From the NCBI GenBank assembly GCA_040755695.1, contig JBFMAK010000004.1, positions 34,112 through 98,111 on the forward strand: 64,000 nt of DNA, written 5' to 3'. The notes beneath the pieces were generated by a model. The model worked only from the letters and a program-made list of their open reading frames with translations. It ran no database searches and was not told the DNA's origin. Source of the DNA: Candidatus Iainarchaeum sp. (GTDB lineage Archaea > Iainarchaeota > Iainarchaeia > Iainarchaeales > 1-14-0-10-31-34). This document shows positions 4,741-62,770 of the stretch, piece by piece. Position 1 is the first letter of the stretch; each line of letters begins with the position of its first letter. The position numbers were made by a program, and so were the translations under genes.

Positions 4741-4820
4741 TTAGTTGGAATTAAACAAGACAAACAAACCAATTTTATTCTTTTTCTATTTTATTTTTAT
4801 TAAGTCACTCACCAGAACAG

Positions 4821-4904: not shown

Positions 4905-4933
4905 AATCAGAACCTTGCGGTTCCGATACCTCC
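4905..4933 (+). repeat. Dispersed hairpin repeat family A, copy 1
   Basis: AATCAGAACCTTGCGGTTCCGATACCTCC abuts the tRNA-Leu discriminator base; further copies at 10224, 10286, 12321 and 27885. Confidence 0.92.
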
Positions 4934-5007
4934 AAACCGCCGCTGCCGGTTTACGTCAGACCTTATAACACAAATTTTTTATTAATTTTGCTGTTTTTTC
5001 TTTGTTT

Positions 5008-6216
5008 ATGAGAAAATCTTTGAATCAGTACAGGAATATTGTTGGGGATGAAAGCATTGACAAGCTTTACGAGGCTGCAGCCCCCTTAAGCGAAAAACAT
5101 TTCGTTCACATTAATTCAACTCATTACGGTGGAGGCGTTGTTGAAATACTAAACAGCCTAATCCCTTTAATGAATGATGCGGGCATTAGCACTGGATGGA
5201 GGGTCCTCAAGGGAACATCAGAATTTTTTACTGTAACCAAAAAATTTCATAATGCCTTGCAAGGAGAAAAAATTAATTTTTCTGAAATGAAAAAAAAGAT
5301 TTACATTGACTTTAATGAACAGAATTCTTTTATTACCCACATAAGCCATCATGATTGCATAATAATTCATGACATTCAGCCACTGCCTTTTATAACCTTC
5401 TATAAAAAAACACAGCCTTGGATTTGGCGCTGCCATGTCGATTTATCAAGGCCTAACAAAGAAGTCTGGAATTACCTGAAAAAATTTATTTTAAGGTATG
5501 ATGCAGTCATTGTTTCAGCAAAAAAGTTTAAGAAAAGTATGCCTATACCAACGCGCATAATTGTCCCATCAATAGATCCTTTAAGCGCAAAAAATGAAGA
5601 AATACCGCAAAATAAAATCGAAAAATTTCTGGCAAAAAAAGGCGTTGAATGCAATAAGCCTATTATCTCACAGATCTCCCGCTTTGATAAATGGAAGGAC
5701 CCATTAGGGGTAATTAAAGTGTTTAAGCTCATTAAAAAGAAAGTGGACTGCAAACTGGTTTTAATGGGGAGCATGGCAGGAGATGACCCTGAAGGACCTA
5801 TTATATATGGAAAAATACTTAAAGAGGTTGAAGGCGAAAAAGACATTATTTTATTAACAGAAGACAATGCCTTTCTGGTTAATGCATTGCAAAGGGCGTC
5901 TTCTGTTGTTTTACAAAAATCTATCAAGGAAGGCTTTGGCCTTTCAGTCAGTGAAGCCTTATGGAAAGAAAAGCCAGTAATAGGAAGCAATGTGGGGGGC
6001 ATTCCATTGCAGATAATCAACGGAAAAACAGGCTATCTGGTTGACGGCATAAAAGATTGCGCAGACAAAACAATTAAACTGTTAAAAAATGAGAAAATGG
6101 CCAAAAAAATGGGTGCCCAAGGAAAAGAATTCGTGAAAAACAATTTTCTGATTACAAGACACTTAAAAGATTATTTTGAATTATTTAAAGAAAAAAGATT
6201 TGGGCTAATAAAATAG
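5008..6216 (+). CDS. treT: Trehalose synthase TreT (GT4)
   Basis: HINSTHYGGGVVEIL, VTKKFHNALQG, WRCHVD, QISRFDKWKDPLG and EGFGLSVSEALWK motifs. Confidence 0.88.
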   Translation: MRKSLNQYRNIVGDESIDKLYEAAAPLSEKHFVHINSTHYGGGVVEILNSLIPLMNDAGISTGWRVLKGTSEFFTVTKKFHNALQGEKINFSEMKKKIYIDFNEQNSFITHISHHDCIIIHDIQPLPFITFYKKTQPWIWRCHVDLSRPNKEVWNYLKKFILRYDAVIVSAKKFKKSMPIPTRIIVPSIDPLSAKNEEIPQNKIEKFLAKKGVECNKPIISQISRFDKWKDPLGVIKVFKLIKKKVDCKLVLMGSMAGDDPEGPIIYGKILKEVEGEKDIILLTEDNAFLVNALQRASSVVLQKSIKEGFGLSVSEALWKEKPVIGSNVGGIPLQIINGKTGYLVDGIKDCADKTIKLLKNEKMAKKMGAQGKEFVKNNFLITRHLKDYFELFKEKRFGLIK

Positions 6217-6286: not shown

Positions 6287-7324
6287 ATGCCAGCAATAGA
6301 AACATTAATCCAGAATGATTACCTTAGATTCCTGCTTATTTTGGTAGCTTCATTCATAATTGCCAGAACAGCGCATTTTATCCTCAAGAATTATTTGAAG
6401 AAACTGACTGAAAAAACAAAAAGCGACATTGATGACATTTTAGTTGACTTGATTACAAGGCCATTATATGTTCTGGTTATGCTTGGAGGCTTTTATCTTG
6501 CCTTGAAATCCTTGGCTGTATTAAATCCTTACTATTTATGGTTGGACGGAATATTCTTTCTTTTATTTGTGTTCATAATTGCAAGGCTTGTTTCAAGGGC
6601 TCTTGCTATATTTGTAAGCAAGGGTCTTAAAGTACAAAAAAAATTTGAGAAAACACCTCAGTTGATAAACAAAATAGTTTCTGCGGTAATCTACTTATTT
6701 GCCATACTGATTGCATTGGATTATTTTGGAATCGAAATAACGCCGGTTATTGCTGCTTTGGGCATTGGAGGACTAGCTGTGGGCCTTGCACTTCAAAGCA
6801 CTCTCTCAAACTTTTTTGCAGGCCTAAGCATAATTTCAGCCAAGCCAATCAATATAGGGGACCACATTGAAATTCCGGATGCAAATATTTCCGGTTACGT
6901 GGAAGACATAAGCTGGAGGGCAACAAGAATCAAAACCCTTCCCAACACTATTGTAATAGTGCCTAACTCAAAGCTAGCTGAAAGCATTATAGTGAATAAT
7001 TCTCTTCCACAAAAAGAGATGGCTGCATTAGTTCAGTGCGGTGTTGCCTACAATTCTGACCTCAAAAAAGTCGAAAAGGTCACAGTGGATGTAGCAAGGA
7101 AAATCCAGAAGACAGTGCCTGGAGCAGTAAAAGAATTTGAGCCTTTCATAAGATACCATACCTTCGCGGACTCAAACATTAATTTTACTGTTATCCTTAG
7201 AGTGGAAACCTTTGTGGATAAGTACCTTGTAATGCACGAATTCATTAAAGCGCTTAAAGAGAGATACGACAAGGAAGGCATTGAAATCTCCTGGCCTGTA
7301 AGAAAAATATATTACGGGAAATGA
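6287..7324 (+). CDS. mscS: Small-conductance mechanosensitive channel
   Basis: GIGGLAVGLALQSTLSNFFAG, GYVEDISWRATRI and IVPNSKL MscS motifs. Confidence 0.93.
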   Translation: MPAIETLIQNDYLRFLLILVASFIIARTAHFILKNYLKKLTEKTKSDIDDILVDLITRPLYVLVMLGGFYLALKSLAVLNPYYLWLDGIFFLLFVFIIARLVSRALAIFVSKGLKVQKKFEKTPQLINKIVSAVIYLFAILIALDYFGIEITPVIAALGIGGLAVGLALQSTLSNFFAGLSIISAKPINIGDHIEIPDANISGYVEDISWRATRIKTLPNTIVIVPNSKLAESIIVNNSLPQKEMAALVQCGVAYNSDLKKVEKVTVDVARKIQKTVPGAVKEFEPFIRYHTFADSNINFTVILRVETFVDKYLVMHEFIKALKERYDKEGIEISWPVRKIYYGK

Positions 7325-7325
7325 A

Positions 7326-8309
7326 TCATCTGCCTAACGCCAAGAAAAGGAAAAGAAAATAAGACAACAATAGCACAAAGCCTTTTGCCCTTGAAATCCT
7401 AAAACCAAAGAAGGTAAATATCACTAACAAAAGGGAAACAAAAAACATGAATGGAATTAAGAGCAGTTCAAATTTTAATGGCACGAGCAATGGCGAAACA
7501 ATTCCTGCTGCCCCCACTACCATGAGAATGTTCACTGTATTGCTTCCAATAATGTTTCCAACCATGATATTGTTTAATCCTTTTTTTATTGCAGTAATTG
7601 AAACAAAGAGTTCAGGCACTGTAGTGCCCAAGGACATGAGGGTTGCGGCAATAAGGCTTTCATGAAAGCCAAAAGAAAAAGCAATCCCCTTGATTCCATC
7701 AATTAAAATTAATGCCCCTAAATACAATCCTATCAGTCCTATGCCAAAAACACCTAACTCAAGCAAAAGGGCCTTCTTGAAGCTTTTCGCTATTGACCTA
7801 ATTAAGGTTTCAGGTTTGAAGAGGTTAAGGTAAGTGTGAAAGCTGAAGAAGTCCGCAACCCTTATCTGAATTTTAAGCAGGAAAAACATGTACGCAATAA
7901 AACCAGCAAACAAAAGCAGGGACTCATAAAATGAAATCACCCCGTCAAAAGCAAAACCCATAAAAATAAAAGAAGCCAGGAACATGATCATTAATTCCCT
8001 GCTGAAAACCTCTCTTGGAATTAAAATTGCCCCTGCAATAACAGAGCTCAAGCCAAGAATAAGGCTTATGTTTGCAATGTTCGCCCCAACAATGTTTCCT
8101 ACAGCAATGCCCCCTGAACCAGCAAAAGAAGAAATAAGAGAAGAGGAAAGCTCTGGCAGAGAGGTTCCAATTGCAATAATTGTAAGGCCTATCACCAATT
8201 CGCTTATTCCGTAGATTCTTGCAATCCTTGAAGCGCTTCCTACAATTAAATCAGAGCTCTTCATCAATAAAAAGAAAGCCGCAAAAACAAACAAAAAATA
8301 CAAAATCAT
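7326..8309 (-). CDS. Calcium/sodium antiporter (CaCA, YrbG-like)
   Basis: Two alpha repeats: IGTSLPE...GNIVGANIAN and LGTTVPE...GNIIGSNTVN. Confidence 0.92.
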   Translation of the reverse strand: MILYFLFVFAAFFLLMKSSDLIVGSASRIARIYGISELVIGLTIIAIGTSLPELSSSLISSFAGSGGIAVGNIVGANIANISLILGLSSVIAGAILIPREVFSRELMIMFLASFIFMGFAFDGVISFYESLLLFAGFIAYMFFLLKIQIRVADFFSFHTYLNLFKPETLIRSIAKSFKKALLLELGVFGIGLIGLYLGALILIDGIKGIAFSFGFHESLIAATLMSLGTTVPELFVSITAIKKGLNNIMVGNIIGSNTVNILMVVGAAGIVSPLLVPLKFELLLIPFMFFVSLLLVIFTFFGFRISRAKGFVLLLSYFLFLFLALGR

Positions 8310-8379
8310 GGTGCTCCACAAAATAAAAAGCGAAAAATTATTTAATGACTTCAGGCATTAAACTAAAAGTGGTTCAAAA

Positions 8380-9591
8380 ATGATTGATGTAGGCTTCATT
8401 ATCGGGCTCATAGGCCTAATAATATTCTTTGGATTCTTTGCTTCGGTGTTCTTCCAGAGGACGAAAATCCCTGACGTCCTTCTGCTCATATTTATTGGAA
8501 TGCTTATAGGGCCTATTTTAGGCTATATTAGCTCTGCTTCGCTGATGGCTTTCGCGCCGTTGATTGGGACAATAGCATTAATCATAATAGTGTTTGAAGG
8601 CGGAGCAAAACTGGATTTGGAGACAGTGATAAAGCAGCTGCCCCAAGCAAGCATATTCACTGTAATAGTGTGCATTCTTACAGCAATCATTTCAATGGTC
8701 TTCACCATATTTTTGGGGATGCCCTTAATCTACGGCCTTCTCTTGGGGTTCATTATTGCGGGAACCAGCTATGAAATAATCGCTTCACTTGTTTCAAAGC
8801 TTTCTGTTTCAGAGGAAATAAAAACTTTATTGAGCTTGGAGTCAGCGTTCAACACAGCAATAACCATTGTTGCGGCTATTGCTTTAGTGCAATTGATTTC
8901 GCTTAAAACATTTGATGTAATAAACCCTTTCCAGAAGATTGCAAGCGCTTTCTCTATCGCAATAGTTTTAGGCATTATTGCAGCATTCCTTTGGGCAAAA
9001 ATAATGAAAATTCTTAAAGGGCAGCCATACCATTACCTTCTCAGCCTCTCAAGCTCTTTTGTTTTATATGTTGTTACAGAAATACTTGGAGGCAACGGGA
9101 TTACCTCCATCCTCATATTCGGGCTAGTGCTTGCCAACTACAACACAATAACAAGGGCATTGAACCTGCGAAGCTACTTCAAGATAGACTATTCTGTCAA
9201 AACCCTCCAGACAGAAGTGAGCTTTTTTGTGAGGACAATGTTTTTCGTTTACTTGGGCGCAGTATTCAATTTCAGTGAATTCACCCAGCAAATCATCATA
9301 ACTTCCCTTGTAGTTTTTCTGGCAATAATCATTGCAAGATATGCTTCAATTAAAATCTTATTGAAATTAAACAATTCACTGAAAGAATCTGATACAGTTA
9401 TTATGTCCATGCTGCCGAGAGGCCTTGGCACAGCAGTTTTAGCCTCACTTCCATTATCCTTTGGCCTGAAACTGGACTTCACAAACATTGTGCTAATGAT
9501 TGTAATCCTCTCAAATGTTTTCGCCACAATAACAGTATTCTATTTCGAGAGAGCATACAAAAAGAACTTGATTGCAACAACCCAACTATAA
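8380..9591 (+). CDS. Cation:proton antiporter (CPA1, NhaP-like)
   Basis: IPDVLLLIFIGMLIGP, IIVFEGG, ESAFN and PRGLGTAVLA; about 12 TM helices. Confidence 0.9.
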   Translation: MIDVGFIIGLIGLIIFFGFFASVFFQRTKIPDVLLLIFIGMLIGPILGYISSASLMAFAPLIGTIALIIIVFEGGAKLDLETVIKQLPQASIFTVIVCILTAIISMVFTIFLGMPLIYGLLLGFIIAGTSYEIIASLVSKLSVSEEIKTLLSLESAFNTAITIVAAIALVQLISLKTFDVINPFQKIASAFSIAIVLGIIAAFLWAKIMKILKGQPYHYLLSLSSSFVLYVVTEILGGNGITSILIFGLVLANYNTITRALNLRSYFKIDYSVKTLQTEVSFFVRTMFFVYLGAVFNFSEFTQQIIITSLVVFLAIIIARYASIKILLKLNNSLKESDTVIMSMLPRGLGTAVLASLPLSFGLKLDFTNIVLMIVILSNVFATITVFYFERAYKKNLIATTQL

Positions 9592-9981: not shown

Positions 9982-10060
9982 TCTTTTTCCTTTTTGGGCA
10001 ACTTTCCCTTTCTTTTTTGGGATAACGTAACACTTTTTTCTTTCGGGAAAGAAAAAAGGG
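9982..10060 (-). repeat. Dispersed repeat family B, copy 3' of tRNA-Ser(TGA)
   Basis: Minus strand: CCC-TTTTTTCTTT-CCCG-AAAGAAAAAAG-TGTTACGTTATCCC-AAAAAAGAAAG-GGAAAGTTGCCC-AAAAAGGAAAAAG; same architecture as 10112-10184, 26778-26875 and 62629-62770. Confidence 0.75.
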
Positions 10061-10065
10061 TCCGA

Positions 10066-10222
10066 CGCGGAGGACGAGATTCGAACTCGCGTGAGCTTTT
10101 GCTCGCCAGCTTTCCTGCCGCCATTTTTTTCTCTTTGGGGCAACTTACCACTTTCTCTTTTTTCTAAAAAGAGAAAGGGGCAGGCTCAAGGCTGGTGCGT
10201 TGGACCACTCCGCCACCTCCGC
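10066..10222 (-). tRNA. tRNA-Ser(TGA) with a 73-nt intron at 37/38 (10112-10184)
   Basis: Acceptor GCGGAGG/CCTCCGC; CCAGC-CT-TGA-G|intron|A-GCTGG; canonical BHB (CTTG/CAGG central helix, two 3-nt bulges, CTGCC/GGCGG intron helix); long variable arm. Confidence 0.95.
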
Positions 10223-10367
10223 AAATCAGAAACTACGTTTCCGATACCTTCCTTGTATTACATTCGCTTGCGCTCAGTAATACTTATCAGAACCTTGCGG
10301 TTCCGATACCTTCCAACCGGTCCGTCAGTTGACGCCGGTGCACTACATTCGCTACGCTCAGTAGTGC
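10223..10367 (+). repeat. Mosaic array of hairpin modules (A-C-A-x-C) upstream of tRNA-Ser(TGA)
   Basis: Family A copies at 10224-10252 and 10286-10314; hairpins GTATTAC-attcgcttgcgctca-GTAATAC (10255-10283) and GCACTAC-attcgctacgctca-GTAGTGC (10340-10367). Confidence 0.85.
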
Positions 10368-10689
10368 TTCCACAGCTTTTGTGTGGTTATAGTTTTATTG
10401 CAGGAAAACATTTAATAAAAAAAGGTTTTAGTTTAAGAAAAATTAGAGCGAAGAATTGAGGAAGGGCAGACCAGGGATCTGCTGCAGCCTTTAAGGAAAA
10501 GGCCGGCGAAGAAAATGCTCCGCAGTGCAGTATGGCCTGCCTCCTTTAACTCCCAATACCCGATACTATCTTTTAAGAGCATTAATTTAAATATTTTTTT
10601 ATTTTATTTTTCAATCAATTGAATTAAACATAAAAAAAGGCTCTTTAAAGCAGAATATTTTTAAATTCAAGTTCAATAATAATTAAAGC

Positions 10690-12321
10690 ATGAAAGGAAA
10701 ATTCTGTTTAATTGCAGTTCTGGTTGTATTTGCTTTGCTTACTGCTGGATGCACTTTAAGCCCAGGCAAGCCTCCTGAAGAAAAGCCAGGGGAAACGCCC
10801 AGCCTTCTTACCCCGCCTTCAAGTGTTACAGCTGAAGTGAAAGGCAGTACTGCAAGGATTACCTGGAGCAAGAGCACTGAAACTGGGGTAAAAGGATACA
10901 ATGTGTTCAGGAGCCTTCTAAAAGGAAAGAATTACATGAAATTGACTGAAGAGCCTTTGGATGTAAACGAATTCACTGACAAGGAATTGGCTGAAGGCCT
11001 TACATACTATTATGCTGTAACAGTAGTTAACTCGCAGGGAACAGACAGTGAGTTCTCTCAGGAGGCAAGCGCCCTGGTTTTAGGGATTGAATTGATTATA
11101 GACAAAAATAACTCAATTTATGCGGGCTTATGCGAGGAAAAGGAAAGCCAGTTCAAGAAAGACTTGTGCTTGTCTAATTATGCAATAGAGCACTTGGATG
11201 GCCTTGTATGCAATTTCATTGAAGGCCTCTCAAAAGACAACTGCTTCAATGAAGTGGCAACAAAAAAGAATGAAGCAGCCTTCTGCGCTTTTATCACTGT
11301 GCTGAATCCTTCAATGAAAGATGCTTGTTACAAGACAATTGCAGTAGCATTGAATGACGCAAAGATTTGCCTGCAGATAAAAGATAAGACAGTTTCAGAT
11401 GAATGCACTAAAACAATAGCCTTAAGCCAGTCTTCGGCAACTGAATGCAATTCAATTGCAGGCGTCACAGAAAGGGATGACTGCTTTACCCAACTGGCGC
11501 AAAAACTCAAGGACTACAAGGTGTGCAATAATATTTCTTCTTCTCGCTCTTTCACTGCATTCAAGAAAGACGAATGCCTTAATTCCCTTCTATCAAGCGC
11601 AACAGACGAAAAGATATGCGCTTTATACATTGACAAAACCTTGGCAGACAACTGCTACAATTCAATTGCAGTCAATACAGGCAATTTCGATTTATGCGAA
11701 AAGATAGTCAGCGACTATAATTCCGATGTATGCGTCTTCAACGTAGACAAAAATGTCCTAAAATTAGAGTACTGCACCATAATAAAGGATGCAAACATAC
11801 AGCAGGACTGCTTTACATATTTAGGGGAGAAGAACCCTTCAATTGAGGCGTGCGAATTAATACTCAATTTCCCTGACAAGGAAACCTGCTACTATAATTT
11901 GGCAGTCAAAAACCTTTCATTCGAGCAATGCAAAAACATTGCGGCAGACATGAACAAAAGGGATTCATGCTACAGCCAGATTGCAGCAGACCTGAACCAG
12001 AGCAGTGCCTGCATTAGAATAAGAGACAACACAATAAGAAACAACTGCTATGCCTTAGTGGCATTGAATTCGCTTAGCCCTGAAGTGTGCGAAAAAATTA
12101 CTACTGGAACAGGATACATTTCATGCATTAGCGAAATAGCAATAAAATTAAAGGACTACAGTGTCTGCAAGCAGGTAACAAAAGACTATCCTGCCTTCAT
12201 TTACAACAGAACAGACTATTGTTATTATGATTTCGGCGTTGAATTGAAAAGCCATGACGCCTGCGCAAAAATATTCAATCCTGCATACAGGGTTGCATGC
12301 GACGGCAATGCCTCAATTTAA
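10690..12321 (+). CDS. Surface lipoprotein with a fibronectin type III domain and Cys-rich ~26-aa repeats
   Basis: LLTAGC lipobox; FN3 pattern (ITWSKS, KGYNVFRS, TYYYAVTVVN); periodic C-x13-C-x~11 repeats to the C-terminus. Confidence 0.85.
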   Translation: MKGKFCLIAVLVVFALLTAGCTLSPGKPPEEKPGETPSLLTPPSSVTAEVKGSTARITWSKSTETGVKGYNVFRSLLKGKNYMKLTEEPLDVNEFTDKELAEGLTYYYAVTVVNSQGTDSEFSQEASALVLGIELIIDKNNSIYAGLCEEKESQFKKDLCLSNYAIEHLDGLVCNFIEGLSKDNCFNEVATKKNEAAFCAFITVLNPSMKDACYKTIAVALNDAKICLQIKDKTVSDECTKTIALSQSSATECNSIAGVTERDDCFTQLAQKLKDYKVCNNISSSRSFTAFKKDECLNSLLSSATDEKICALYIDKTLADNCYNSIAVNTGNFDLCEKIVSDYNSDVCVFNVDKNVLKLEYCTIIKDANIQQDCFTYLGEKNPSIEACELILNFPDKETCYYNLAVKNLSFEQCKNIAADMNKRDSCYSQIAADLNQSSACIRIRDNTIRNNCYALVALNSLSPEVCEKITTGTGYISCISEIAIKLKDYSVCKQVTKDYPAFIYNRTDYCYYDFGVELKSHDACAKIFNPAYRVACDGNASI

Positions 12322-12350
12322 ATCAGAACCTTGCGGTTCCGATACCTCCC
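12321..12350 (+). repeat. Dispersed hairpin repeat family A, copy between convergent genes
   Basis: AATCAGAACCTTGCGGTTCCGATACCTCCC; the first 29 nt are identical to the 4905 copy. Confidence 0.92.
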
Positions 12351-12359
12351 TTTGGTGGT

Positions 12360-13025
12360 TCAAATACCTCCCTTAAAATTCGGATTCCTTAATTTACTGA
12401 TTGTTTCAATCAAATTCTTTGACTTGAAGATGGTTGAACCGCTCACAAGAATTGTTGCTCCCCCATCAATTACCTTGCGCGCATTCAATTCATTTATGCC
12501 ACCGTCAACCTCTAACTCAAAATTCAATCCCCTTTCTTCCTTCAATTCATTCAATTCCCTTATTTTCTGGATTGATTCCTCAAGGAATTTCTGGCCTCCA
12601 AAGCCTGCATTAACGCTCATAACCAGAACCATATCAACAGAATCAAGGAAAGCAAGAACTTCTTTCACTGGCGTTAAAGCATTCACTGCAATCCCTGCCT
12701 TAACATTATTTGATTTAATCAATTCAATTAATTCATCCTGCTTTTTTGTTGCCTCAACATGAAAGGAAAGGAATTCAGGCTTAAAAGAAAGAAATCTTTC
12801 AATCAGCTTTTCAGGCTCTGAAATCATCAAGTGAATATCCAAAGGCACTCTTGTCCTGCCGCAAATTGATTCAATTACAGGCAGGCCGAAAGAAATGTTT
12901 TGTACAAACAAACCGTCCATTACGTCCAAGTGCAGCAAGTCAGCTCCAGCCTCTTCCACCCTCTTGATTTCTTCTCCCAGCACAGAAAAATCAGCTGAAA
13001 GAATTGAAGGCGCAATTAAAACCAT
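12360..13025 (-). CDS. rpe: Ribulose-phosphate 3-epimerase
   Basis: IAPSILSADF, LHLDVMDGLFV, DIHLMI, MSVNAGFGGQKF and EVDGGIN. Confidence 0.97.
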   Translation of the reverse strand: MVLIAPSILSADFSVLGEEIKRVEEAGADLLHLDVMDGLFVQNISFGLPVIESICGRTRVPLDIHLMISEPEKLIERFLSFKPEFLSFHVEATKKQDELIELIKSNNVKAGIAVNALTPVKEVLAFLDSVDMVLVMSVNAGFGGQKFLEESIQKIRELNELKEERGLNFELEVDGGINELNARKVIDGGATILVSGSTIFKSKNLIETISKLRNPNFKGGI

Positions 13026-14729: not shown

Positions 14730-17700
14730 ATGAGCGAAGAAGAGGAAAAGCCAAGGGCTGAAAGCGGGGAAGAAAAGCACAGGGTGGAGAAGAGCATTGT
14801 GAAGGAAGACAACGACATATTTGATGAAGTGTTTGAGGGAAAAAAGGAAAAGAGGGTGGAGCAAAGAATTGAAGAGACTGAAGAAGAGGAAAAAGAAATG
14901 AATGAAAAGGAAGGAAAGGAATTAGGAGGGGAAGAGGAATTAATTCCAATTAAAGAAAAAAAGAAGAAAAAAGAAAAGGAAAAGAAGTTGAAGGGCGTTG
15001 AAGGCGCAAGGCAGGAAATGCTCCAAGAAAAAGAGAAAGACAAACTCAAGAGGGAGATAATAAAAAAGGCATTGAAGTCTGCAACAATAGAGCCAGAGAT
15101 AATGGAACCTGAAATTGAAGAAGTAGAATTAGAGCCTGAAGAGATAAGCCCTGAAGACATTGAAGGCCTGGGAGAAAAATACCTTAAAGAAGAATTAGGA
15201 GAAAAAGAAAGCGAAGTAGAATTAATTGAGCCTGCAACAGTGCCTTTAAGGTTTCTGGAGTATGAAGCAAAAAATTCTGTTTTCATTGGAAGAAAAAAAT
15301 CAGTCTTCCAGTCCTACAAGGACGAGGCAGGCCTCTTGATTGGGAGAGTGGAAGAAGACGGAAAACATAAAGAAAAAACAGTATTATTAGACGGACTGAA
15401 CCCTCACGTAATATTTGTTTGCGGCGCGAGAGGATCGGGAAAATGCCTTACAGGCGATTCACTGATAACATTAGAAGACGGATCAATTATACCTATAAAA
15501 GAATTAGAATACAACAACAAAAGGGTCTTGGGATTAAATCATGAACTAAAAATAGTTCCATTAAAAAAAGAGGGCTTTTACAAAAGAAAAGTAGACAAAT
15601 TGTTTTCTCTCCTGTTAAGGAGTGGAAGAGAAATAAAATTGACTCCAGAACACCCTCTCCTTACAATTAATGGGTGGGTGCAGGCACAAGAACTAAAAAG
15701 AAAAGACAGTATAGCAACTCCAAGAATTCTTAATGTGTTTGGAAACAGTAAAATGAAAGAAGGGGATGTAAAGCTTTTAGCTTATTTTATAGCAGAAGGC
15801 CATCTTGGAAATGCCTTTGTATTGTTTAGTAATCAAGACAAAAAAATAATTGAAGATTTCTCTAAAAGCATAAGGGAATTTGACGAAAACCTGAGGATCG
15901 AAGTGCACAGCAAAAGCTGGTGCTATAGAATAGCACAAAAAAAGAAAGGCATTGATTTAAGAAATATTGTAAGAAATGAAAAAGGGCAGTTTACAAACAA
16001 GGGTTTTGTCATTACACAAAAAAGCTCTCTGGCTAAATGGTTTGAAAGCATTGGCTTATACGGAAAGCTTTCAAAAGAGAAATTTATTCCGGAAGAAATA
16101 TTAAAGCTTTCAAAAGAACAACTGGCCTTATTTCTTAACAGGCTTTTCAGCTGTGATGGAAGCATTCACAAGGTAAGCGGAAGCGAAAAAAACTGGCTGA
16201 TTTCTTATGCTAGTTCCTCAGAGAAACTAATAAGGCAAGTGCAACACCTTCTGCTTAGATTTGGGATAATCTCAAAGATTAAACCAAAAAAAACAAAATT
16301 TAAAGAGAAAATATTTGATTCTTTTGAATTGGTTATTTCATCTGAAAGCGTAATCAAATTCATTCAAGAAATAGGCTTTTTTGGAATAAAAGAATTAAGA
16401 CAAGAAACTGCAATAAAAAACATGCTTGAAATTAACAGAAACCCCAACATAGATACAATTCCAAAAGACATTTGGGATATTTATAGGCCAAAGAATTGGA
16501 CGGCAACAGCCAGAGCTATGGGTTACAGCCAAAAGTCATTAAAGTCATTGCATAATGCCATAAATTATGCTCCTTCAAGAGAAAAGCTATTGAAAATTGC
16601 CCAAATAGATGAAAATAAGGGAGTACAACTGATAGCAGAATCAGACATTTTTTGGGATGAGGTAGTTGAATTAAAAGAAATAGAAGGGGAAGAAGTGTAT
16701 GATATTTCTGTCCCAGAATACCACAATTTTATTGCAAACGATATAATTGTTCATAATTCTTACGTCCTTGGAGTCATAGCAGAGGAACTGGCTCTAAGAA
16801 ACAAGAACATTGGCACAATAGTAATTGACCCTGTGGGAGTATTCTGGAGCATGAGGTATCCAAACAAAGAGGAAAAAGAATTAAAGGAATTAATTGAATG
16901 GAATTTAATGCCTCAAGGCCTGGAGAACTTAAAGGTATTCGTGCCAGAAGGCATTAAAGCAGAAATTCCAAGGAATACTTACGATGCAACATTTGCAGTA
17001 CTGCCTTCAATGCTTTCAGTGGAAGACTGGTGCCTTACGTTTGGAATGGAGCGCTTTGGGCCGACAGGCCTTCTGTTAGACAAAGTACTCAAAAAAATAG
17101 AGCATGGTTATAAGACAACAGAAGCAAAATACATTAAAGCAAAGAAAGGAAACTACAGCTTGGAGGAATTGATTCAATGCCTTGAAACAGAAGAAGAATT
17201 AAATTCAAAAGAGAGAGGCTACAAGCAAGATTCCATCAGGGCTCTGGCTTCAAGGCTTGAAGCAGCAAAGAACTGGGGCATATTCTCAGAGAAAGGCACT
17301 CCATTAAGCGAATTAAGCAGGGAAAACCAGCTTACTGTTTTAGACACAAGCTTTTTAGAGGACAATGTCGGGGCATTAGTAATAGGGATTCTGGCTAGAA
17401 GAATCCTTTCAGCAAGAAAGATTTCTACAAGAAAAGAGAGCGCAAAAAAATTGAAGGCAAGCATGGACGAAATGCTTGAACTGGAGATTCCTCCAACATG
17501 GCTGTTCATAGATGAAGCCCACACTTTAATTCCCTCAGGGAATGTAAAAACGCCTGCAACAGAGGCTTTAGTGGAATACGTAAAGCAGGGAAGGAGGCCT
17601 GGCTGCAGCATTGTTTTTGCAACACAGCAGCCCAGCGCAATAGACACAAAGGTTTTATCCCAATTGGATATTCTTATTTCGCATAAACTGGTTTTTGACG

Positions 17701-18932
17701 ACGACATAAAAGCAATATACAAGAGGATTCCGACAATAATTCCATTCAAATACAAGAAAAGCAATTTCATTAGGACTCTCCCAATTGGAAAAGCATTAGT
17801 AGGAGACAGGAGAGAGGAAACAAGCAGGGCTTTCGTGCTGAGCATTAGGCCCAGGATAAGCCAGCACGAAGGAAGGGATGTAGAGGCAACATCAATTGAA
17901 TCAAAAATGAGCGAAGAACAAGTCCAAAAACTTGCAGTGGAAATGCTTATCTCAAAATTGAACAGGGAAGGAGAAATAGAATTGCCTCAAGTGAATTCGC
18001 TTATTGACACGCTGAACAGCAAGTATAAAACAAAGGTAATGCTCTCCTCAGTTCTTGACGCCCTTGAAGACAAGATGGTTTCAATTGATTCAGAGAAAAT
18101 ATTCCTGCCTTCAGCAATAAAAAAAGAGGAAGAAATAGCAGAAAGAAAGGAATTAATTGAAGAAAAAGGAATTGAAAGGGGAATTGAAGGCAAAGCAGAA
18201 GAAATGGCAGAAGCATTTCATTCGTTCCCGATCAGATTCAGTGAAGAGAGAGCCAGAAGGATTGCTGAAAGCGCAAGGAAGAAGAAAAAATTGGGTTTGA
18301 TTGGAAGGGAAGAGCAATTGAAATCTTTGAATCTGTACTACGAAAAAATATTCAAGATTCAATACAATGACTTTAACCAAAGACAGGAATTCTTTTCCAA
18401 CAACTGTTATGTGAGTTCTGAGACCGGTGAATTTCTGCATGCAACAGACAGAGAATTCATTGAATCAAAAGGATTCTCAAAAGTCATTCCCTTAGGAAGG
18501 GATGAAGCAAGCACTCTCGGAAGGCTTATTGAAAGAAAAAACCTGAAAGAATTAATTGGGCTGGGAGGCATAAGCGAAGAGAAAGCAAAGAAAGTGCTCG
18601 AAGAACTTACAAGAAAAGGATTCGTGAAAAAAGAATTAAAAGAGGGGAAGGCATCCTATTTCCTCAACTCGCAATTAGAGCTTCCGCCAAACCCAAGGCA
18701 CAAAATTGTCAATTCACTGGATGAACTGCCTTTAACAGAAATAAAAGCAGGGCAAGTCAAGAAAGAAAACTTCACTGAAAGCCAGGTAATGCAGGCCCTG
18801 CAAAACTATTGGCCTTCAATTGTAATCAAAAAGCTTTCATTAATACTGAAGCCCTACTTTGAGGCTGTCCTAGAAGAAGCAGGAAAAGAAAGAAGGCTTA
18901 AGATAGACGCAATCACGGGAAAAATAATTTAA
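14730..18932 (+). CDS. HerA/FtsK-superfamily (DUF87-like) ATPase with an intein and a long acidic N-terminus
   Basis: Walker A GARGSGK|S split by the intein, IVIDPVG, Walker B LFIDEAH, QGRRPGCSIVFATQQP; about 962 aa after splicing. Confidence 0.88.
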   Translation: MSEEEEKPRAESGEEKHRVEKSIVKEDNDIFDEVFEGKKEKRVEQRIEETEEEEKEMNEKEGKELGGEEELIPIKEKKKKKEKEKKLKGVEGARQEMLQEKEKDKLKREIIKKALKSATIEPEIMEPEIEEVELEPEEISPEDIEGLGEKYLKEELGEKESEVELIEPATVPLRFLEYEAKNSVFIGRKKSVFQSYKDEAGLLIGRVEEDGKHKEKTVLLDGLNPHVIFVCGARGSGKCLTGDSLITLEDGSIIPIKELEYNNKRVLGLNHELKIVPLKKEGFYKRKVDKLFSLLLRSGREIKLTPEHPLLTINGWVQAQELKRKDSIATPRILNVFGNSKMKEGDVKLLAYFIAEGHLGNAFVLFSNQDKKIIEDFSKSIREFDENLRIEVHSKSWCYRIAQKKKGIDLRNIVRNEKGQFTNKGFVITQKSSLAKWFESIGLYGKLSKEKFIPEEILKLSKEQLALFLNRLFSCDGSIHKVSGSEKNWLISYASSSEKLIRQVQHLLLRFGIISKIKPKKTKFKEKIFDSFELVISSESVIKFIQEIGFFGIKELRQETAIKNMLEINRNPNIDTIPKDIWDIYRPKNWTATARAMGYSQKSLKSLHNAINYAPSREKLLKIAQIDENKGVQLIAESDIFWDEVVELKEIEGEEVYDISVPEYHNFIANDIIVHNSYVLGVIAEELALRNKNIGTIVIDPVGVFWSMRYPNKEEKELKELIEWNLMPQGLENLKVFVPEGIKAEIPRNTYDATFAVLPSMLSVEDWCLTFGMERFGPTGLLLDKVLKKIEHGYKTTEAKYIKAKKGNYSLEELIQCLETEEELNSKERGYKQDSIRALASRLEAAKNWGIFSEKGTPLSELSRENQLTVLDTSFLEDNVGALVIGILARRILSARKISTRKESAKKLKASMDEMLELEIPPTWLFIDEAHTLIPSGNVKTPATEALVEYVKQGRRPGCSIVFATQQPSAIDTKVLSQLDILISHKLVFDDDIKAIYKRIPTIIPFKYKKSNFIRTLPIGKALVGDRREETSRAFVLSIRPRISQHEGRDVEATSIESKMSEEQVQKLAVEMLISKLNREGEIELPQVNSLIDTLNSKYKTKVMLSSVLDALEDKMVSIDSEKIFLPSAIKKEEEIAERKELIEEKGIERGIEGKAEEMAEAFHSFPIRFSEERARRIAESARKKKKLGLIGREEQLKSLNLYYEKIFKIQYNDFNQRQEFFSNNCYVSSETGEFLHATDREFIESKGFSKVIPLGRDEASTLGRLIERKNLKELIGLGGISEEKAKKVLEELTRKGFVKKELKEGKASYFLNSQLELPPNPRHKIVNSLDELPLTEIKAGQVKKENFTESQVMQALQNYWPSIVIKKLSLILKPYFEAVLEEAGKERRLKIDAITGKII
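15444..16757 (+). mobile_element. Intein (438 aa) with a LAGLIDADG homing endonuclease
   Basis: Starts CLTGDSLI; block B IKLTPEHPLLT; LAGLIDADG-like LLAYFIAEG and LNRLFSCDG; ends VYDISV...HNFIANDIIVHN with Ser as the +1 residue. Confidence 0.95.
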
Positions 18933-26695: not shown

Positions 26696-26777
26696 GCTGG
26701 GGTCGGATAATGGCATTCCACTGGCCTCGAGAGCCAGCGCCCTCAAGGGCATGAGAGTTCAAGTCTCTCCCCCAGCG
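26696..26777 (+). tRNA. tRNA-Ser(CGA)
   Basis: GCTGGGG/CCCCAGC acceptor, CTGGC-CTCGAGA-GCCAG anticodon arm, long variable arm. Confidence 0.95.
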
Positions 26778-26875
26778 CTGCCCCTTCTTTTCTTTAGAAA
26801 AGAAAAGAAGCGGTAAGTTGCCGGAAGAAAAGAAAGTAAAAAGTGCAAGGAGCCCAAAAAAAGAAAAAAGAAGAT
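26778..26875 (+). repeat. Dispersed repeat family B, copy 3' of tRNA-Ser(CGA)
   Basis: CTGCCC-CTTCTTTTCTTT-AGA-AAAGAAAAGAAG-CGGTAAGTTGCC..., 36/45 identical without gaps to the tRNA-Ser(TGA) intron. Confidence 0.88.
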
Positions 26876-27847: not shown

Positions 27848-27971
27848 GCGGCTATAGTCTAGTGGTTAGGATTCGAGCTTCCCAAATCAGAACCTAACGG
27901 TTCCGATACCTCCCTTAAGAGGTTGTGATTGGAGTGAGCTCGCTACCCGGGTTCGAATCCCGGTAGCCGCA
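27848..27971 (+). tRNA. tRNA-Gly(CCC) with a 52-nt intron at 37/38 (27885-27936, boundary ambiguous by 1 nt)
   Basis: GCGGCTA/TAGCCGC acceptor; CGAGC-TT-CCC-A|intron|A-GCTCG; central helix TTCC/GGAG with a relaxed BHB; T arm CCGGG-TTCGAAT-CCCGG. Confidence 0.93.
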
Positions 27972-27993
27972 CTTCAAGTTTGGTTATTTGGAT

Positions 27994-28848
27994 TTAGTCT
28001 TTTCCAACAGTGCCTAATGCTAAGGCATACGAATAGAATGGGCCTCAAAGCTCATGGTATTTTGCCGGCTGTTTTTCTATTTCAAAGTAATTTTTTACGA
28101 ATTCAGAAAACTTCAGCCATTTCTCCCTGTGCTCTCTGGCTTTTTGCGTAAAAGAAAAAAACAAAGATATGTTGAACCAAATGCGAGCTTCAAATTGGAT
28201 TATGGAAAAATCCCTGGCAAACATTATAAGAAAATGATTCAAGAAGAAATACAAGAAAAACAAACCTGCAATAAAAAATAGTAATTCAATAATAAAAAAA
28301 GGAAAAAATCCAGTTAAAAAAGCAAATATGATAAAAAGCGGAAAAATAAATATCATTGAAAATGCCCCTACTGCCCAGAAGAAAATAAATTGAAAGATAT
28401 AAATTTTCATGAGCTCTTCCTTTCCCATCTCATTAACAAAAGACATCTGGCTCATGCTCGTCAAACCTTCTGTTTTGAATTCAACAATTAAAGCATTCTC
28501 AAATTTTTGCCAGAATTCCTTGTATTTGTCACTGAGAGCCTGCTTAAGTTCAGTGAAGCTGAATCTTTTGTTTTCTTTTTTAATCCATTCCATCAGAAAA
28601 TTCAATACAACCAATTCAGAGGTGTTTAAGCCTGCTGTTTTTTCATCATTAATTCTTGGAAAAAATTCTTCACCAAAACTTTCAAGCTTGACTGCCCCTT
28701 TGTCTTCCAGCCTGAAAATTGAAGCCATAAAACTATTTTTTGAAAAATACTTTTTCACTAGAAATTCTGCAAGGCCAGGAGAATAATCAAAAGGTGGCTT
28801 TTCAAAATATTCTCCCACAAAAATCAACTCTAAACTATTAATATACAA
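27994..28848 (-). pseudogene. DUF2207-like membrane protein remnant (N-terminally truncated, premature TGA)
   Basis: PPFDYSPG...SIFRLEDKG and WLKFSEFVKNY; the frame continues past TGA(28045-28047) as GPFYSYALALGTVGKD*, matching the family C-terminal motif LW..Y..YA.ALG. Confidence 0.65.
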
Positions 28849-62291: not shown

Positions 62292-62631
62292 GGCGGGTAG
62301 GACAAGGCCAGCTGACGGTTCCTTAAGTGGAGCTGAGGAAAGTCCGTCCATCCAAACTTTTTGAAAAAAGTTTGATCAAAACAAACTTTTAAGAAAAGTT
62401 TGATCAAAAAACACTTGAAAAGGTGGCTCTCGGAACAGAAACGAAACCATTCAAGGATTACAATGAATGAAAAAAGAGGTTCTTTGAATATAGTTTCAAG
62501 CTTTGCTTGAAATTTTTCAAAGCTTTGCTTTGAAATAGGATGAAACGGCTGAGAGCAGATGCAAGCCTTCAATGGCGCTCAGGTGAATGCTGGATAAAAA
62601 CAAAAGACGGCTTACTCTGTCCTGCTCCGCC
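62292..62631 (+). ncRNA. rnpB: RNase P RNA
   Basis: P1 GGGTAGGACA/TGTCCTGCTC; P2 CCAGC/GCTGG; conserved GAGGAAAGTCC, ACAGAAA, GATGAAACG, GAATGC and ACAAAAGACGGCTTA; P4 AAGTCCG/CGGCTT. Confidence 0.9.
62353..62409 (+). repeat. Tandem family D hairpins inside the RNase P RNA
   Basis: CAAACTTTT-TGAA-AAAAGTTTG-ATCAAAA followed by CAAACTTTT-AAG-AAAAGTTTG-ATCAAAA. Confidence 0.88.
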
Positions 62632-62770
62632 CTTTTCTTTTAAAAAAAGAAAAGTGCAGGTTGCCCAAAAGAAAAGAAGCGGCAAGTTGCTGGAAGAAAA
62701 GAAAAAAAGCGACAGGCTGTCGGAAAGAAAGAAAATTAACGGGTTGCCTCAAAAGAAAAAAGAAAGGGGT
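62629..62770 (+). repeat. Dispersed repeat family B, expanded copy 3' of the RNase P RNA
   Basis: CTTTTCTTTT-AAA-AAAAGAAAAG hairpin, then four purine-tract/mini-hairpin units (TGCAGGTTGCCC, CGGCAAGTTGCTG, CGACAGGCTGTCG, ACGGGTTGCCT). Confidence 0.8.

Follow-up and report, generated by a model that had tools for sequence, protein, structure and literature searches.

The tRNA-Gly(CCC) gene in the 64-kb stretch of DNA analysed here (the window) has an intron that opens with a dispersed hairpin of about 30 nt, family A. Judging from sequence comparison with relatives, this intron appears to be an ordinary BHB intron at the canonical position, which exists independently of the repeat. We think it somewhat probable that family A is a hairpin module of the REP/MITE kind, settling in stretches of RNA that are subsequently removed, and that in this gene it sits inside a pre-existing intron. 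The locus is organised as follows:

27848..27972, plus strand: tRNA-Gly(CCC) gene (ARAGORN with introns allowed; Rfam RF00005 tRNA model, 52.3 bits)
27848-27884, plus strand: exon 1
27885-27936, plus strand: intron (52 nt, position 37/38)
27937-27971 plus discriminator, plus strand: exon 2
27885..27918, plus strand: family-A module, AATCAGAACC-TAAC-GGTTCCGAT-ACCTCCCTTAA, intron nt 1-34 (pattern match; covariance model R1, 57.3 bits)
27915..27936, plus strand: element-independent 3′ part of the intron, TTAAGAGGTTGTGATTGGAGTG, which aligns with TTAAAGAATTATGATTGGAGCA of the L020 intron

The intron lies between canonical positions 37 and 38 (ARAGORN -i intron (38,52)), and the exons alone fold as a cloverleaf, with the Rfam tRNA model spanning 1-71. 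In the closest relative, L020, a neighbouring gene is 88% identical at the amino acid level, and the tRNA-Gly(CCC) exons match those of the window at 71 of 72 positions while the flanks diverge, which argues for a functional gene; its intron is presumably spliced. The orthologous tRNA in L020 has an intron of 25 nt, GAATTAAAGAATTATGATTGGAGCA, at the same site and without the family-A element. This intron is a perfect, textbook hBHBh′, complete with its central helix, both bulges and both flanking helices, and it shares with the window intron both its start (AAT) and its 3′ end (TGATTGGAG, about 13 nt). Since L020 has the same intron without the element, intron and family-A repeat are separable. 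Family A in the window is a ~28-nt indel beside the 5′ splice site of an existing intron, 1–3 nt downstream of that site. The sequences are compatible with either direction of change, an insertion in the window or a precise deletion in L020; L021, a more distant relative with an A2 copy at the same tRNA-Gly(CCC) site, bears on this point.

In the predicted fold, GGAG of the intron 3′ part pairs with anticodon-loop nucleotides 32–35 as the central BHB helix, and TGATT pairs with AATCA as the outer helix h′. The proposed pairing of the intron 3′ end back on the 5′ half of the element is possible in this way, and the BHB fold with AAUCA/UGAUU has −21.4 kcal/mol; an alternative fold that retains the full hairpin of family A is about equal (−21.2 kcal/mol). 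The unconstrained minimum is −25.0 kcal/mol, so that the candidate BHB folds (−20.8 to −21.4) are about 4 kcal/mol above it. The central helix UUCC/GGAG and a 3-nt 3′ bulge are present in the window intron; pairing of the first intron nucleotide, A(i1), with U would leave a 5′ bulge of 2 nt, as against 3 nt when that base is unpaired. The segment from 27915 to 27936 appears to be an older part of the intron than the family-A module.

The original prediction held that this tRNA had acquired its intron from the repeat, and that claim is not supported. The complete, element-free BHB intron of L020 occupies the same site with the same ends, more distant relatives have other contents there and one has no intron, and the 3′ 18–22 nt of the window intron, which pair with the anticodon loop, lie outside the repeat. 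The content of the site is subfamily A1 (upper stem CC/GG) in the window, subfamily A2 (upper stem AAAC/GTTT) together with other sequence in L021, hairpins unrelated to family A in L003 and L022, and family B in L025; L026 is intronless.

Besides the copy in the intron, the window contains these family-A copies and neighbouring hairpins:

4905..4933, plus strand: family-A copy, directly after the discriminator of tRNA-Leu(GAG) (4821-4904)
4934-4959: type-D small hairpin, following that copy
10224..10254, plus strand: family-A variant (upper stem AC/GT, loop TAC), abutting the 5′ end of the minus-strand tRNA-Ser(TGA) and antisense to the tRNA
10286..10314, plus strand: family-A copy in the leader region of tRNA-Ser(TGA)
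10255-10283 and 10340-10367: two type-C hairpins, flanking the copy at 10286..10314
10315-10339: type-D hairpin, also flanking that copy
12321..12376, plus strand: family-A copy (12321-12353) and a partial repeat of its own 3′ half (12357-12376), occupying the gap between two convergent genes

The pattern ATCAGAA-N{7,8}-TTCCGATACC matches the 64-kb window five times, at 4906, 10225, 10286, 12322 and 27886, always on the plus strand, and not once in 100 dinucleotide shuffles; the five copies first proposed are therefore borne out. As had also been noted, the first 29 nt of the intron are identical at 27 positions to the copies at 4905 and 12321, and the differences are either in the loop or compensatory: both of those in the intron copy are in the loop (TAAC vs TTGC), while the copy at 10224 has AC/GT for CC/GG in the upper stem and a loop of 3 nt. 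The lower stem of 7 bp, AUCAGAA/UUCCGAU, is invariant in the family, as is the A·C mismatch, which is kept in all five window copies, as predicted, and in 29 of the 29 distinct copies collected. The upper stem varies from 1 to 4 bp and the loop from 3 to 4 nt. The ACCUYY tail has an invariant ACC, such that a 7-bp stem followed by ACC is found in 29/29 copies; one copy has a changed basal pair, with compensation (CUCAGAA/UUCCGAG). Family A thus consists of a 22-nt hairpin with 9–11 bp and a tail. The strand opposite to the one we call sense forms the better hairpin (−12.5 vs −8.1 kcal/mol), with the A·C mismatch read as a G·U wobble and GNNA or GNA loops in 25 of the 29 copies. All five copies in the window are outside mature gene products, and in this family A resembles REP elements, which are extragenic, multicopy imperfect palindromes of 20–40 nt. 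At 12321, the first base of the copy is the last stop-codon base of the ORF at 10690-12321, and the opposite strand of 12321..12376 encodes the terminal residues (..KGGI*) of ribulose-phosphate 3-epimerase (12360-13025, minus strand).

Two details of the original description need correction. The copies at 10224 and 10286 do lie upstream of tRNA-Ser, as stated, and since tRNA-Ser(TGA) is on the minus strand (10064-10223) they are antisense to it. Among the tRNA-like ends said to precede the copies, the CCGCA at 4900-4904 does represent a genuine 3′ end, that of tRNA-Leu(GAG); the CCGCA before 10224 is the reverse complement of the 5′ end of tRNA-Ser(TGA), and the CCCA is the anticodon loop of tRNA-Gly.

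A wider search, which had been suggested, found family A in at least 18 other archaeal contigs, giving 29 distinct copies with those of the window, and the family appears to be common to a clade of tiny DPANN archaea. Its ATCAG end nearly always lies 0–7 nt past a tRNA or 16S rRNA 3′ end (about 11 of 12 cases at stable-RNA 3′ ends), at nt 1–3 of a canonical intron (4/4, in Gly, Gln and Leu tRNAs) or at a stop codon; one copy starts 2 nt past a 16S rRNA 3′ end. This end faces the tRNA gene end, whether the 3′ end on the same strand or the 5′ end on the opposite strand. As to the general pattern of repeats in the tRNA introns of relatives, family A opens the introns of tRNA-Gln(TTG), tRNA-Leu(CAA) and another tRNA-Gly(CCC) in other genomes and is also present in the T-loop intron of a tRNA-Ser, so that Gly, Gln, Leu and Ser tRNAs are all represented. 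Module A or B is at the intron 5′ end in at least six different tRNA genes across genomes. Whole introns are not near-identical between isoacceptors: the ~30-nt module is all they have in common, their 3′ parts are unrelated, and the window has one A intron. The bases preceding ATCAG vary (..GCAA, ..CCAT, ..GCGT, ..TTTAG, ..CTCT, ..ACTT and others). Loop sequences are shared within genomes, which would be the expected product of spread or homogenisation within a genome: the window and L006 have TTGC, two contigs that belong to one Iainarchaeum MAG both have TAGC, and L016 and L017 have CGAT. Hairpins follow 12 of 24 tRNA 3′ ends as against 25% in controls, a figure that is indicative only because the loci were picked for carrying the element.

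Family B obeys the same placement rule as family A, at three sites in the window:

10064..10223, minus strand: tRNA-Ser(TGA), with a 73-nt intron (~10114-10186) opening with a family-B module (ARAGORN, Rfam, alignment with trailer copies)
26779..26840, plus strand: family-B module directly after the 3′ end of tRNA-Ser(CGA) (26696-26778); repeat family D17
62627..62770, plus strand: family-B units in tandem, immediately following the archaeal RNase P RNA (62296-62626); repeat families D5 and D17

The module in the tRNA-Ser(TGA) intron is a T-rich/A-rich palindrome with a small hairpin, GTGGTAAGTTGCCCC, and the one at 26779..26840 shares 38 identical nt with a portion of the tRNA-Ser(TGA) intron in L003. 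A second repeat family in the other intron-bearing tRNA of the window, which had been predicted, is thus present. The broader claim, that both introns came from different repeat families, holds for their content (A in tRNA-Gly, B in tRNA-Ser(TGA)) and is not supported for the origin of the tRNA-Gly intron from A. The modules are also reshuffled between relatives. The tRNA-Leu gene is followed by A-D in the window but by D-C-A in L006. About 125 extra nt lie upstream of tRNA-Ser(TGA) in the window, in the order A′-C-A-D-C, A′ being the variant at 10224, which is absent from L006; a single A is found there in L006. Several features hint at movement as DNA: the ATCAG end faces tRNA gene ends on either strand, antisense copies occur in 3′ UTRs (L001) and in an intron (L002), a 36-nt duplication of the 3′ end of a histone gene flanks one family-A copy in L001, and in L012, direct repeats of about 45 nt that include the element flank a 1.5-kb ORF.

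We propose that modules A, B, C and D are a small set common to a DPANN clade, which would be gained, lost and reshuffled at the DNA level between close relatives, in the manner of REP or MITE sequences. They would persist wherever they are removed from, or lie outside, the functional product, that is, in tRNA and rRNA trailers, tRNA leaders, BHB introns and gaps between convergent genes. In the tRNA-Gly intron, family A may be tolerated in that its AAUCA replaces the older AAUUA strand of helix h′ and pairs with the retained UGAUU; alternatively, its own stem may serve as the helix beside the 5′ bulge. With either modelled fold, the splicing endonuclease could still excise the entire insert. 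Since the element is found in an older intron as well as after tRNA and 16S rRNA genes, introns would be remodelled by moving hairpins and not created by family A. The hairpin is multicopy and conserved, it keeps to a few kinds of position, and it is present or absent between relatives as an indel; that it moves as DNA, and that it is selfish or neutral, is what we infer from these properties. A scan of 20 ORFs in the window detected neither a transposase nor a reverse transcriptase nor an HUH nuclease, and the two filled-versus-empty comparisons (the tRNA-Gly intron and the tRNA-Leu trailer) revealed neither a target-site duplication nor a conserved target motif. The lower stem, mismatch and tail are nearly identical across clearly different genomes, which is unusual for a selfish repeat and suggests recognition by a conserved host factor.

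Mere tolerance anywhere in non-coding DNA does not explain how tightly family A is placed, and this counts against the reading that we prefer.

What else could account for these arrangements? One possibility is that a free repeat, by inserting into an intronless tRNA-Gly(CCC), created the intron, and that repeat families are a general source of new tRNA introns. The presence of A or B at the intron 5′ end in no fewer than six tRNA genes fits this, as do the GGAA/GGAG motifs of the purine-rich B modules, which are able to pair with UUCC of the anticodon loop, and as does the pair L025 and L026, whose tRNA-Gly(CCC) exons are identical, with a 71-nt intron opening with a family-B module in L025 and none in L026. 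That difference is compatible with either gain or loss, and because introns at 37/38 of this gene occur in five of six sampled lineages, a loss in L026 would account for the pattern no less well than gains on several occasions. As the minimal, complete and element-free L020 intron has its ends in common with that of the window, and the segment that pairs with the anticodon loop is non-repeat sequence, we find this origin doubtful for the tRNA-Gly intron. A somewhat less improbable view, still an unlikely one, is that the element is, or adjoins, the att site of integrase-type elements or small cassettes that target tRNA and gene ends, the solo copies having lost their cargo. L042, an IMG/VR contig, has a tyrosine integrase gene followed by tRNA-Ser(GCT) and then an element 1 nt past the encoded CCA; the duplicated gene 3′ end on both sides of the L001 element is as expected after Campbell-type integration; the L012 ORF between its direct repeats adjoins a gene whose product, on weak Pfam matches, is a PD-(D/E)XK nuclease carrying an InsA-like zinc ribbon; and L007 has just a 13-nt 3′ fragment of tRNA-Ala ahead of the element. 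The Caldiarchaeum model (PMC3293823) also ties intron gain to mobile-element integration. Yet L042 is a single integrase-linked case, the search over all loci having otherwise found one integrase fragment, in L014, that does not adjoin an element, and tRNA genes attract integrases regardless. No att-like repeat was seen in the 12.5 kb of L042 examined, and the variable loop and upper-stem length are unlike a double-stranded recombinase core site. In the viral, plasmid and phage collections, the stricter A1 pattern had no match, BLAST matches were at chance level, and only one of 19 matches to a loose pattern is real, the one in L042.

Selection in place is another explanation, which we regard as rather unlikely: family A would be a functional cis-acting RNA signal that marks processing or termination points beside stable RNAs. 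By analogy with the t-elements of Haloferax and with mitochondrial tRNA punctuation, it might be a tRNA-like minihelix (a 7-bp “acceptor” stem and A-CC) cut by RNase P or RNase Z; or it might supply a preformed helix h′ and so define the 5′ splice-site bulge. In an archaeon, RNase P and tRNase Z have been documented to act on t-elements (PMC4326828). The conserved part is exactly a 7-bp stem and ACC in every copy, with the one compensated basal pair; the sense copies begin 0–7 nt past tRNA 3′ ends and 2 nt past the 16S rRNA 3′ end; the hairpin starts at intron nt 1–3, where h′ starts in a BHB; an RNase P RNA is encoded in the window; conservation across genomes fits recognition by a conserved factor; and the T-rich/A-rich palindrome of family B resembles a two-way oligo-T terminator. 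Against such a signal, the element is dispensable, as tRNA-Gly of L020 and tRNA-Ala(CGC) of the window do without it and its presence varies among close relatives. Copies are found in antisense (10224 and 10286 in the window; L001, in 3′ UTRs; L002, in an intron; L011), a T5 terminator separates tRNA and element in L007 and L014, the better hairpin is that of the opposite strand, and the tRNA covariance model does not give even a partial match on the element. Moreover, an RNase P cut at the splice site leaves ends that the tRNA ligase RtcB cannot join. Spread through RNA is what we deem least probable, indeed highly improbable: excised hairpin-led introns or trailers would be ligated to fresh RNA 3′ ends (the 5′ exon after the endonuclease cut, or tRNA and 16S rRNA after 3′ processing) and then copied back into DNA. 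This would explain the exact abutment on processing sites, at intron nt 1–3, 0–7 nt past tRNA ends and 2 nt past 16S rRNA, and the placement rule common to A and B. It would not explain the copy that lies antisense at a tRNA 5′ end or the other antisense copies, which cannot arise in this way; for most copies the better hairpin is in the non-transcribed orientation, the 20 window ORFs scanned include no reverse transcriptase, and we know of no precedent for heritable reverse splicing of BHB introns.

Several known entities were considered and set aside. No window copy matches Rfam at the gathering threshold, nor is there any match at E ≤ 10 over 10000-12500, and the tRNA covariance model has none on the element at E ≤ 10. 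A CRISPR repeat does not fit, as one pair alone is closely spaced (62 nt apart), with compensatory stem changes and another repeat family in between, and the other copies are kilobases apart; integron attC and double-stranded recombinase sites do not fit in size or in the variable stem and loop length. An IS200/IS605 element would have a conserved 4–5-nt target 5′ of the left end, where the bases of family A vary, and a MITE proper is not indicated, as the filled and empty sites compared lack a target-site duplication, the 20 ORFs scanned include no transposase, and the hairpin is the sole inverted repeat. Mimicry of the 16S rRNA 3′ end (helix 45 and anti-Shine-Dalgarno) was rejected, since the alignment score did not exceed that of shuffled sequences, 20 of 300 of which reached it. 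The reverse complement of family A resembles the helix-27 region (0 of 300 shuffles), probably a chance match between GCAA hairpins after six comparisons. A 16S rRNA processing stem in L009 was rejected, there being no leader sequence complementary to the element, and so was a coding function: the antisense ..GGIGT..F-stop at several gene ends (Rpe, the L012 ORF) represents read-through tails and not a conserved domain. The literature searched contained no description of modules A–D.

The mobile hairpin module that we favour has partial counterparts. It is like bacterial REP and MITE sequences in being a short, imperfect, non-coding palindrome whose conserved asymmetry, the mismatch, fixes its orientation, and in being extragenic, often between convergent genes, with many similar copies per genome and a presence that differs between close relatives. 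It differs from them in that neither a RAYT nor any other transposase partner turned up in the 20 ORFs scanned within the window, 64 kb of a 154.8-kb contig, in having neither a target-site duplication nor terminal inverted repeats beyond the hairpin itself, in a sequence conserved across genomes instead of species-specific, and in its marked preference for exact stable-RNA gene ends and 5′ splice sites. In Thermoproteales, tRNA intron transposition (Fujishima et al. 2010, as reported in PMC4090602) implies late movement of intron sequences between tRNA genes, presumably at the DNA level. Here, however, the common unit is a ~30-nt module and not a whole intron, family A is at least as frequent outside introns (tRNA and 16S rRNA 3′ ends, a tRNA leader, between genes), the hosts are DPANN archaea, and an element-free version of the same intron exists. 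In Haloferax volcanii, t-elements act as processing signals that resemble tRNA (PMC4326828, with reference to Hölzle 2008 and 2012). Like family A, they are small structured elements directly beside a stable RNA (5S rRNA), and they can set RNA ends via tRNA-processing enzymes; the 7-bp stem and ACC of family A resemble an acceptor stem with discriminator and CC. Unlike them, family A has no T-arm, is not recognised by the tRNA covariance model, is far shorter (9–11 bp), and occurs in both orientations and within introns. In the Caldiarchaeum model (PMC3293823), a mobile element at a tRNA locus accompanied the gain of tRNA introns and the scattering of fragments in a short time span; that element is 1.8 kb long and encodes a recombinase, whereas the moving unit here is non-coding and ~30 nt, with an integrase link in one contig. 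Archaeal IS200/IS605-type ωRNAs are processed at BHB motifs (PMC12558985). This group is comparable in its strand-specific DNA hairpins, its conserved stem irregularities, its insertion without target duplication and, in archaea, its interaction with BHB motifs and the endonuclease. Family A, however, has no conserved tetra- or pentanucleotide target adjoining it, it consists of one ~22-nt hairpin where those elements have two distinct ends, and no TnpA or TnpB was seen nearby.

As a more far-reaching possibility, which we advance tentatively and consider rather unlikely, A and B might be structure-specific mobile hairpins that home to RNA-processing junctions, inserting just past the 3′ end of a tRNA or rRNA or just past a 5′ splice site, and that act as agents of the birth, growth and turnover of BHB introns in DPANN archaea. 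Landing in an anticodon loop with pairing would give a spliceable intron in one step, L025 versus L026 being a candidate, and a conserved enzyme would take hold of the element by its invariant lower stem, its mismatch and its ACC tail.

The origin of archaeal tRNA introns is an old question, whether they are early or were inserted late, and the splicing endonucleases of this host group tolerate relaxed motifs. The main prior evidence for late movement has been intron similarity in Thermoproteales, without a donor outside introns and without empty sites. In the archaea studied here, family A occurs within introns and also as a free module that follows tRNA and 16S rRNA genes; filled and empty versions of one intron exist in two close relatives, and another pair differs by a whole intron. 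Together these make the remodelling of introns, and possibly their gain, directly testable, and the strict placement beside RNA processing sites may point to a novel enzyme or RNA-processing signal.

The window has a G+C content of 37.5% and derives from a DPANN-type archaeon; the entries closest to it in the databases are metagenome contigs and MAGs that bear the labels Iainarchaeum, Diapherotrites, Nanoarchaeota or just "archaeon". The following RNA genes were called in it.

RNA features of the window
27848–27972, forward strand: tRNA-Gly(CCC), found by ARAGORN with introns allowed; the Rfam tRNA model spans the same interval
27885–27936, forward strand: its intron, 52 nt, after position 37 (ARAGORN)
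62296–62626: archaeal RNase P RNA (Rfam)

That the tRNA-Gly(CCC) intron contains a dispersed hairpin, here called family A (a repeat of about 30 nt), is confirmed by pattern matches together with the ARAGORN/Rfam intron call. All five copies of the original prediction are recovered by the pattern, at 4906, 10225, 10286, 12322 and 27886 on the forward strand, with no match in 100 shuffles. The near-identity of the intron start to the copies at 4905 and 12321 also holds, as the first 29 nt differ at two loop bases only. The copies at 10224 and 10286 do lie in the 5′ leader region of tRNA-Ser(TGA); however, since this gene is on the minus strand (10064–10223), they are antisense to it, and the "CCGCA" ahead of 10224, taken for a tRNA-like end, is present but is the reverse complement of the tRNA-Ser(TGA) 5′ end.

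Counting the window and 18 further contigs, we collected 29 different copies of family A. In 28 of them the lower stem reads ATCAGAA/TTCCGAT, and the single deviating copy has a compensated basal-pair change (CTCAGAA/TTCCGAG). All 29 carry an A·C mismatch as the fourth pair of the stem and an ACC directly past it. Changes in the upper stem (CC/GG, AC/GT, AAAC/GTTT or C/G) are compensated, and the loop, of 3–4 nt, is unconstrained in sequence. The tail is mostly ACCTCCCTT; in the A2 subfamily, with upper stem AAAC/GTTT, it is ACCTTTTCC. This invariance is partly built in, because most of the primary copies were retrieved by exact pattern matching; the invariant features are also kept in six secondary copies, found by covariance model or loose regular expression. 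The better hairpin is on the complementary strand (RNA energy -12.5 versus -8.1 kcal/mol), where the A·C mismatch becomes a G·U pair and the loops are GNNA or GNA in 25/29. No Rfam family matched family A.

Is the repeat, then, the origin of the intron? Orthologous tRNA-Gly loci were fetched via homologues of the upstream gene, an adenosine-specific kinase (PF04008). The closest relative is L020, where the kinase shows 88% identity, gene order is kept, and the tRNA-Gly(CCC) exons match those of the window at 71 of 72 positions. Its intron is just 25 nt, GAATTAAAGAATTATGATTGGAGCA, and folds into a textbook hBHBh′ (bulge-helix-bulge, BHB, with flanking helices), with a central helix UUCC/GGAG, two 3-nt bulges and an outer helix AAUUA/UGAUU. 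The first bases AAT, TTAA and the 3′ end TGATTGGAG are common to both introns, and about 28 nt of family A lie between these parts in the window. Since the L020 intron lacks family A, the intron exists independently of the element. The comparison indicates an insertion of family A into a BHB intron, or its precise deletion from one. In the modelled fold, the element's own AUCA takes the place of the older AUUA strand, so that the outer helix would be preserved. The first interpretation is supported in part: repeats and introns are indeed linked, and generally so, but the L020 intron speaks against creation of the tRNA-Gly(CCC) intron by the repeat, and family A does not appear to have created it.

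Immediately downstream of tRNA-Gly, the window has a DUF2207-type membrane protein (28045–28848, minus) and L020 a SET-domain protein (10668–11042, plus); synteny restarts at a 90-aa ORF, the interval being a gene-replacement hot spot adjoining the tRNA.

When kinase identities are used to arrange the lineages in a rough tree, the content of the tRNA-Gly(CCC) intron site turns over rapidly.

tRNA-Gly(CCC) introns by lineage
Window: 52 nt, family A (A1, upper stem CC/GG) at the start
L020: 25 nt, without the element
L021: ~135 nt, A2 copy at the start, then a partial A1
L003 and L022: 96–98 nt, unrelated hairpins
L025 (locus 4713–4856): 71 nt, family-B module at the start
L026 (locus 2136–2207), sister of L025: intronless

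The exons of L025 and L026 are identical, their flanks share 85% DNA identity, and the neighbouring kinases are 90% identical; they are a clean presence/absence pair for the whole intron.

The ATCAG end of family A adjoins functional boundaries with striking regularity, both in the window and in other archaeal loci.

Placement of family A
0–7 nt past a tRNA 3′ end, same orientation: window tRNA-Leu; two tRNA-Ser genes of L003; tRNA-Ala of L009 and L014; tRNA-Arg of L010, L015 and L018; tRNA-Ser of L042; tRNA-Ala 3′ fragment of L007
Past 16S rRNA: L009, A2 element 2 nt beyond the 3′ end (~9573)
At nt 1–3 of a canonical 37/38 intron: tRNA-Gly(CCC) of the window and L021; tRNA-Leu(CAA) of L005; tRNA-Gln(TTG) of L004, miscalled Glu by ARAGORN
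At a stop codon: window 12321; L006
Antisense: leader of tRNA-Ser(TGA), window and L006; 3′ UTR of a histone gene, L001; downstream of tRNA-Met, L011; T-loop intron of tRNA-Ser(TGA), L002

The one clear exception is the L006 tRNA-Leu, with family A 67 nt downstream and other hairpin modules between. Under uniform placement, family A would be expected within 7 nt in about 1/9 of cases for 100–575-nt spacers (a rough estimate by hand); with at least seven independent cases, chance is, on this rough estimate, negligible. At 12321–12376 in the window, family A occupies the entire gap separating two convergent genes, and ribulose-phosphate 3-epimerase (12360–13025, minus) takes its last residues and stop codon from the antisense strand of the element. 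The tails encoded on that strand are ..KGGI* in the window and ..KGGIGTARF* in L006 (960–1640, plus).

The L009 16S rRNA gene (7243–9573) contains an ORF-bearing intron or insertion of ~830 nt (about 8576–9400, near position 1390), because of which the Rfam 3′ end, 8610, is misleading and false; the true end is ..GGATCACCTCCTT at ~9573. The L002 tRNA-Ser(TGA) (1750–1960, minus) is recognised only once its T-loop intron of ~102 nt is removed; this holds three hairpins AT-NN-GAACC...GGTTC-NN-AT, the middle one a true, antisense family-A copy.

The placement rule also holds for family B, in which a T-rich/A-rich palindrome precedes small GC hairpins and runs of purines.

Placement of family B
Directly past tRNA-Ser(CGA): window, from 26779
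Directly past RNase P RNA: window 62627–62770, tandem array of about four units
Directly past tRNA-Leu(CAA): L005
At the intron start: tRNA-Ser(TGA) of the window, L006 and L003; tRNA-Gly(CCC) of L025

Intron and trailer copies of family B are alignable from the junction onward. In the RNase P array, purine runs AAAAGAAAAGAA are spaced by small GC hairpins such as GCGGCAAGTTGCTG, and the first unit forms the palindrome. Family A is accompanied by small hairpins of types C and D; at shared tRNA genes, the window and L006 differ in how many modules are present and in their order.

We propose that A, like B, would be a small non-coding module that genomes gain, lose and exchange as DNA and that may survive where sequence is cut away later (trailers, leaders, introns) or past a stop codon. 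In the tRNA-Gly intron, family A would be a passenger, taken out by the splicing endonuclease with the older intron. This account is the best supported for A and B, and the most likely. DNA-level behaviour is favoured by indels between close relatives, by loop sequences common within a genome and different between genomes, by the ATCAG end, which can face the 5′ as well as the 3′ end of a tRNA gene whatever the strand, by antisense copies, and by duplicated flanks in L001 (36 nt) and L012 (~45 nt). Exchange of passengers at the DNA level accounts neither for the lower stem, mismatch and tail being invariant across genomes nor for placement almost exactly at RNA processing sites.

Four other readings, none of them confirmed, cover parts of this gap. 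Family A may be a functional processing or termination signal, t-element-like or acting as the outer helix h′; Haloferax t-elements (PMC4326828) resemble it only in a 7-bp stem followed by ACC. It may instead be an attachment site or integration scar, as one contig, L042, with an integrase, a tRNA and then the element, would suggest. RNA-level ligation might be followed by copying back into DNA. The remaining reading, in which the repeat creates the intron, meets the element-free intron of L020. Neither a transposase nor a reverse transcriptase turned up among the 20 window ORFs scanned.

Several loci have further features. L042 (11128–12451, an IMG/VR contig) carries a tyrosine integrase gene, tRNA-Ser(GCT) with encoded CCA and a family-A variant 1 nt on; a DNA methylase and a SIR2-like protein are among the products encoded downstream. 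L007 (1240–1300) retains only the last 13 nt of tRNA-Ala (CCGCCCGGTCCAC), then T5 and the element, and continues with the sequence found past the full tRNA-Ala of L014 (13698–13820); it is a 3′ fragment such as rearrangements at tRNA genes leave behind. In L001 (5380–5500), the archaeal histone gene (5454–5660, minus) is followed by antisense family A and then by 36 nt that repeat the 3′ end of this gene almost identically, stop codon included. In L012 (3560–6650), direct repeats of ~45 nt, each made up of ATTCAGCCTTCGTCACCTC and the element, bracket an intein-like ORF of 524 aa; the gene after it specifies a product of 430 aa, with weak matches to PD-(D/E)XK nucleases and to InsA-type zinc ribbons. 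The window has a 1400-aa ORF (14730–18932, plus; Pfam Intein_splicing, LAGLIDADG_3, DUF87, HerA_C), a HerA-type helicase split by an intein whose homing-endonuclease domain is of the LAGLIDADG type.

No description of these hairpin modules was found in the literature searched. Among known cases, the intron transposition inferred for Thermoproteales (Fujishima 2010, via PMC4090602) comes nearest, and the mobile-element model for Caldiarchaeum (PMC3293823) is also close. Unlike in those cases, the moving unit here is a hairpin of about 30 nt rather than a whole intron, family A occurs more often free than within introns, DPANN archaea are the hosts, and one intron can be compared in a filled and an empty version. 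Family A is similar in form to REP elements and MITEs, but it lacks the defining features of a MITE and has no known partner enzyme. The data make archaeal intron remodelling directly testable.
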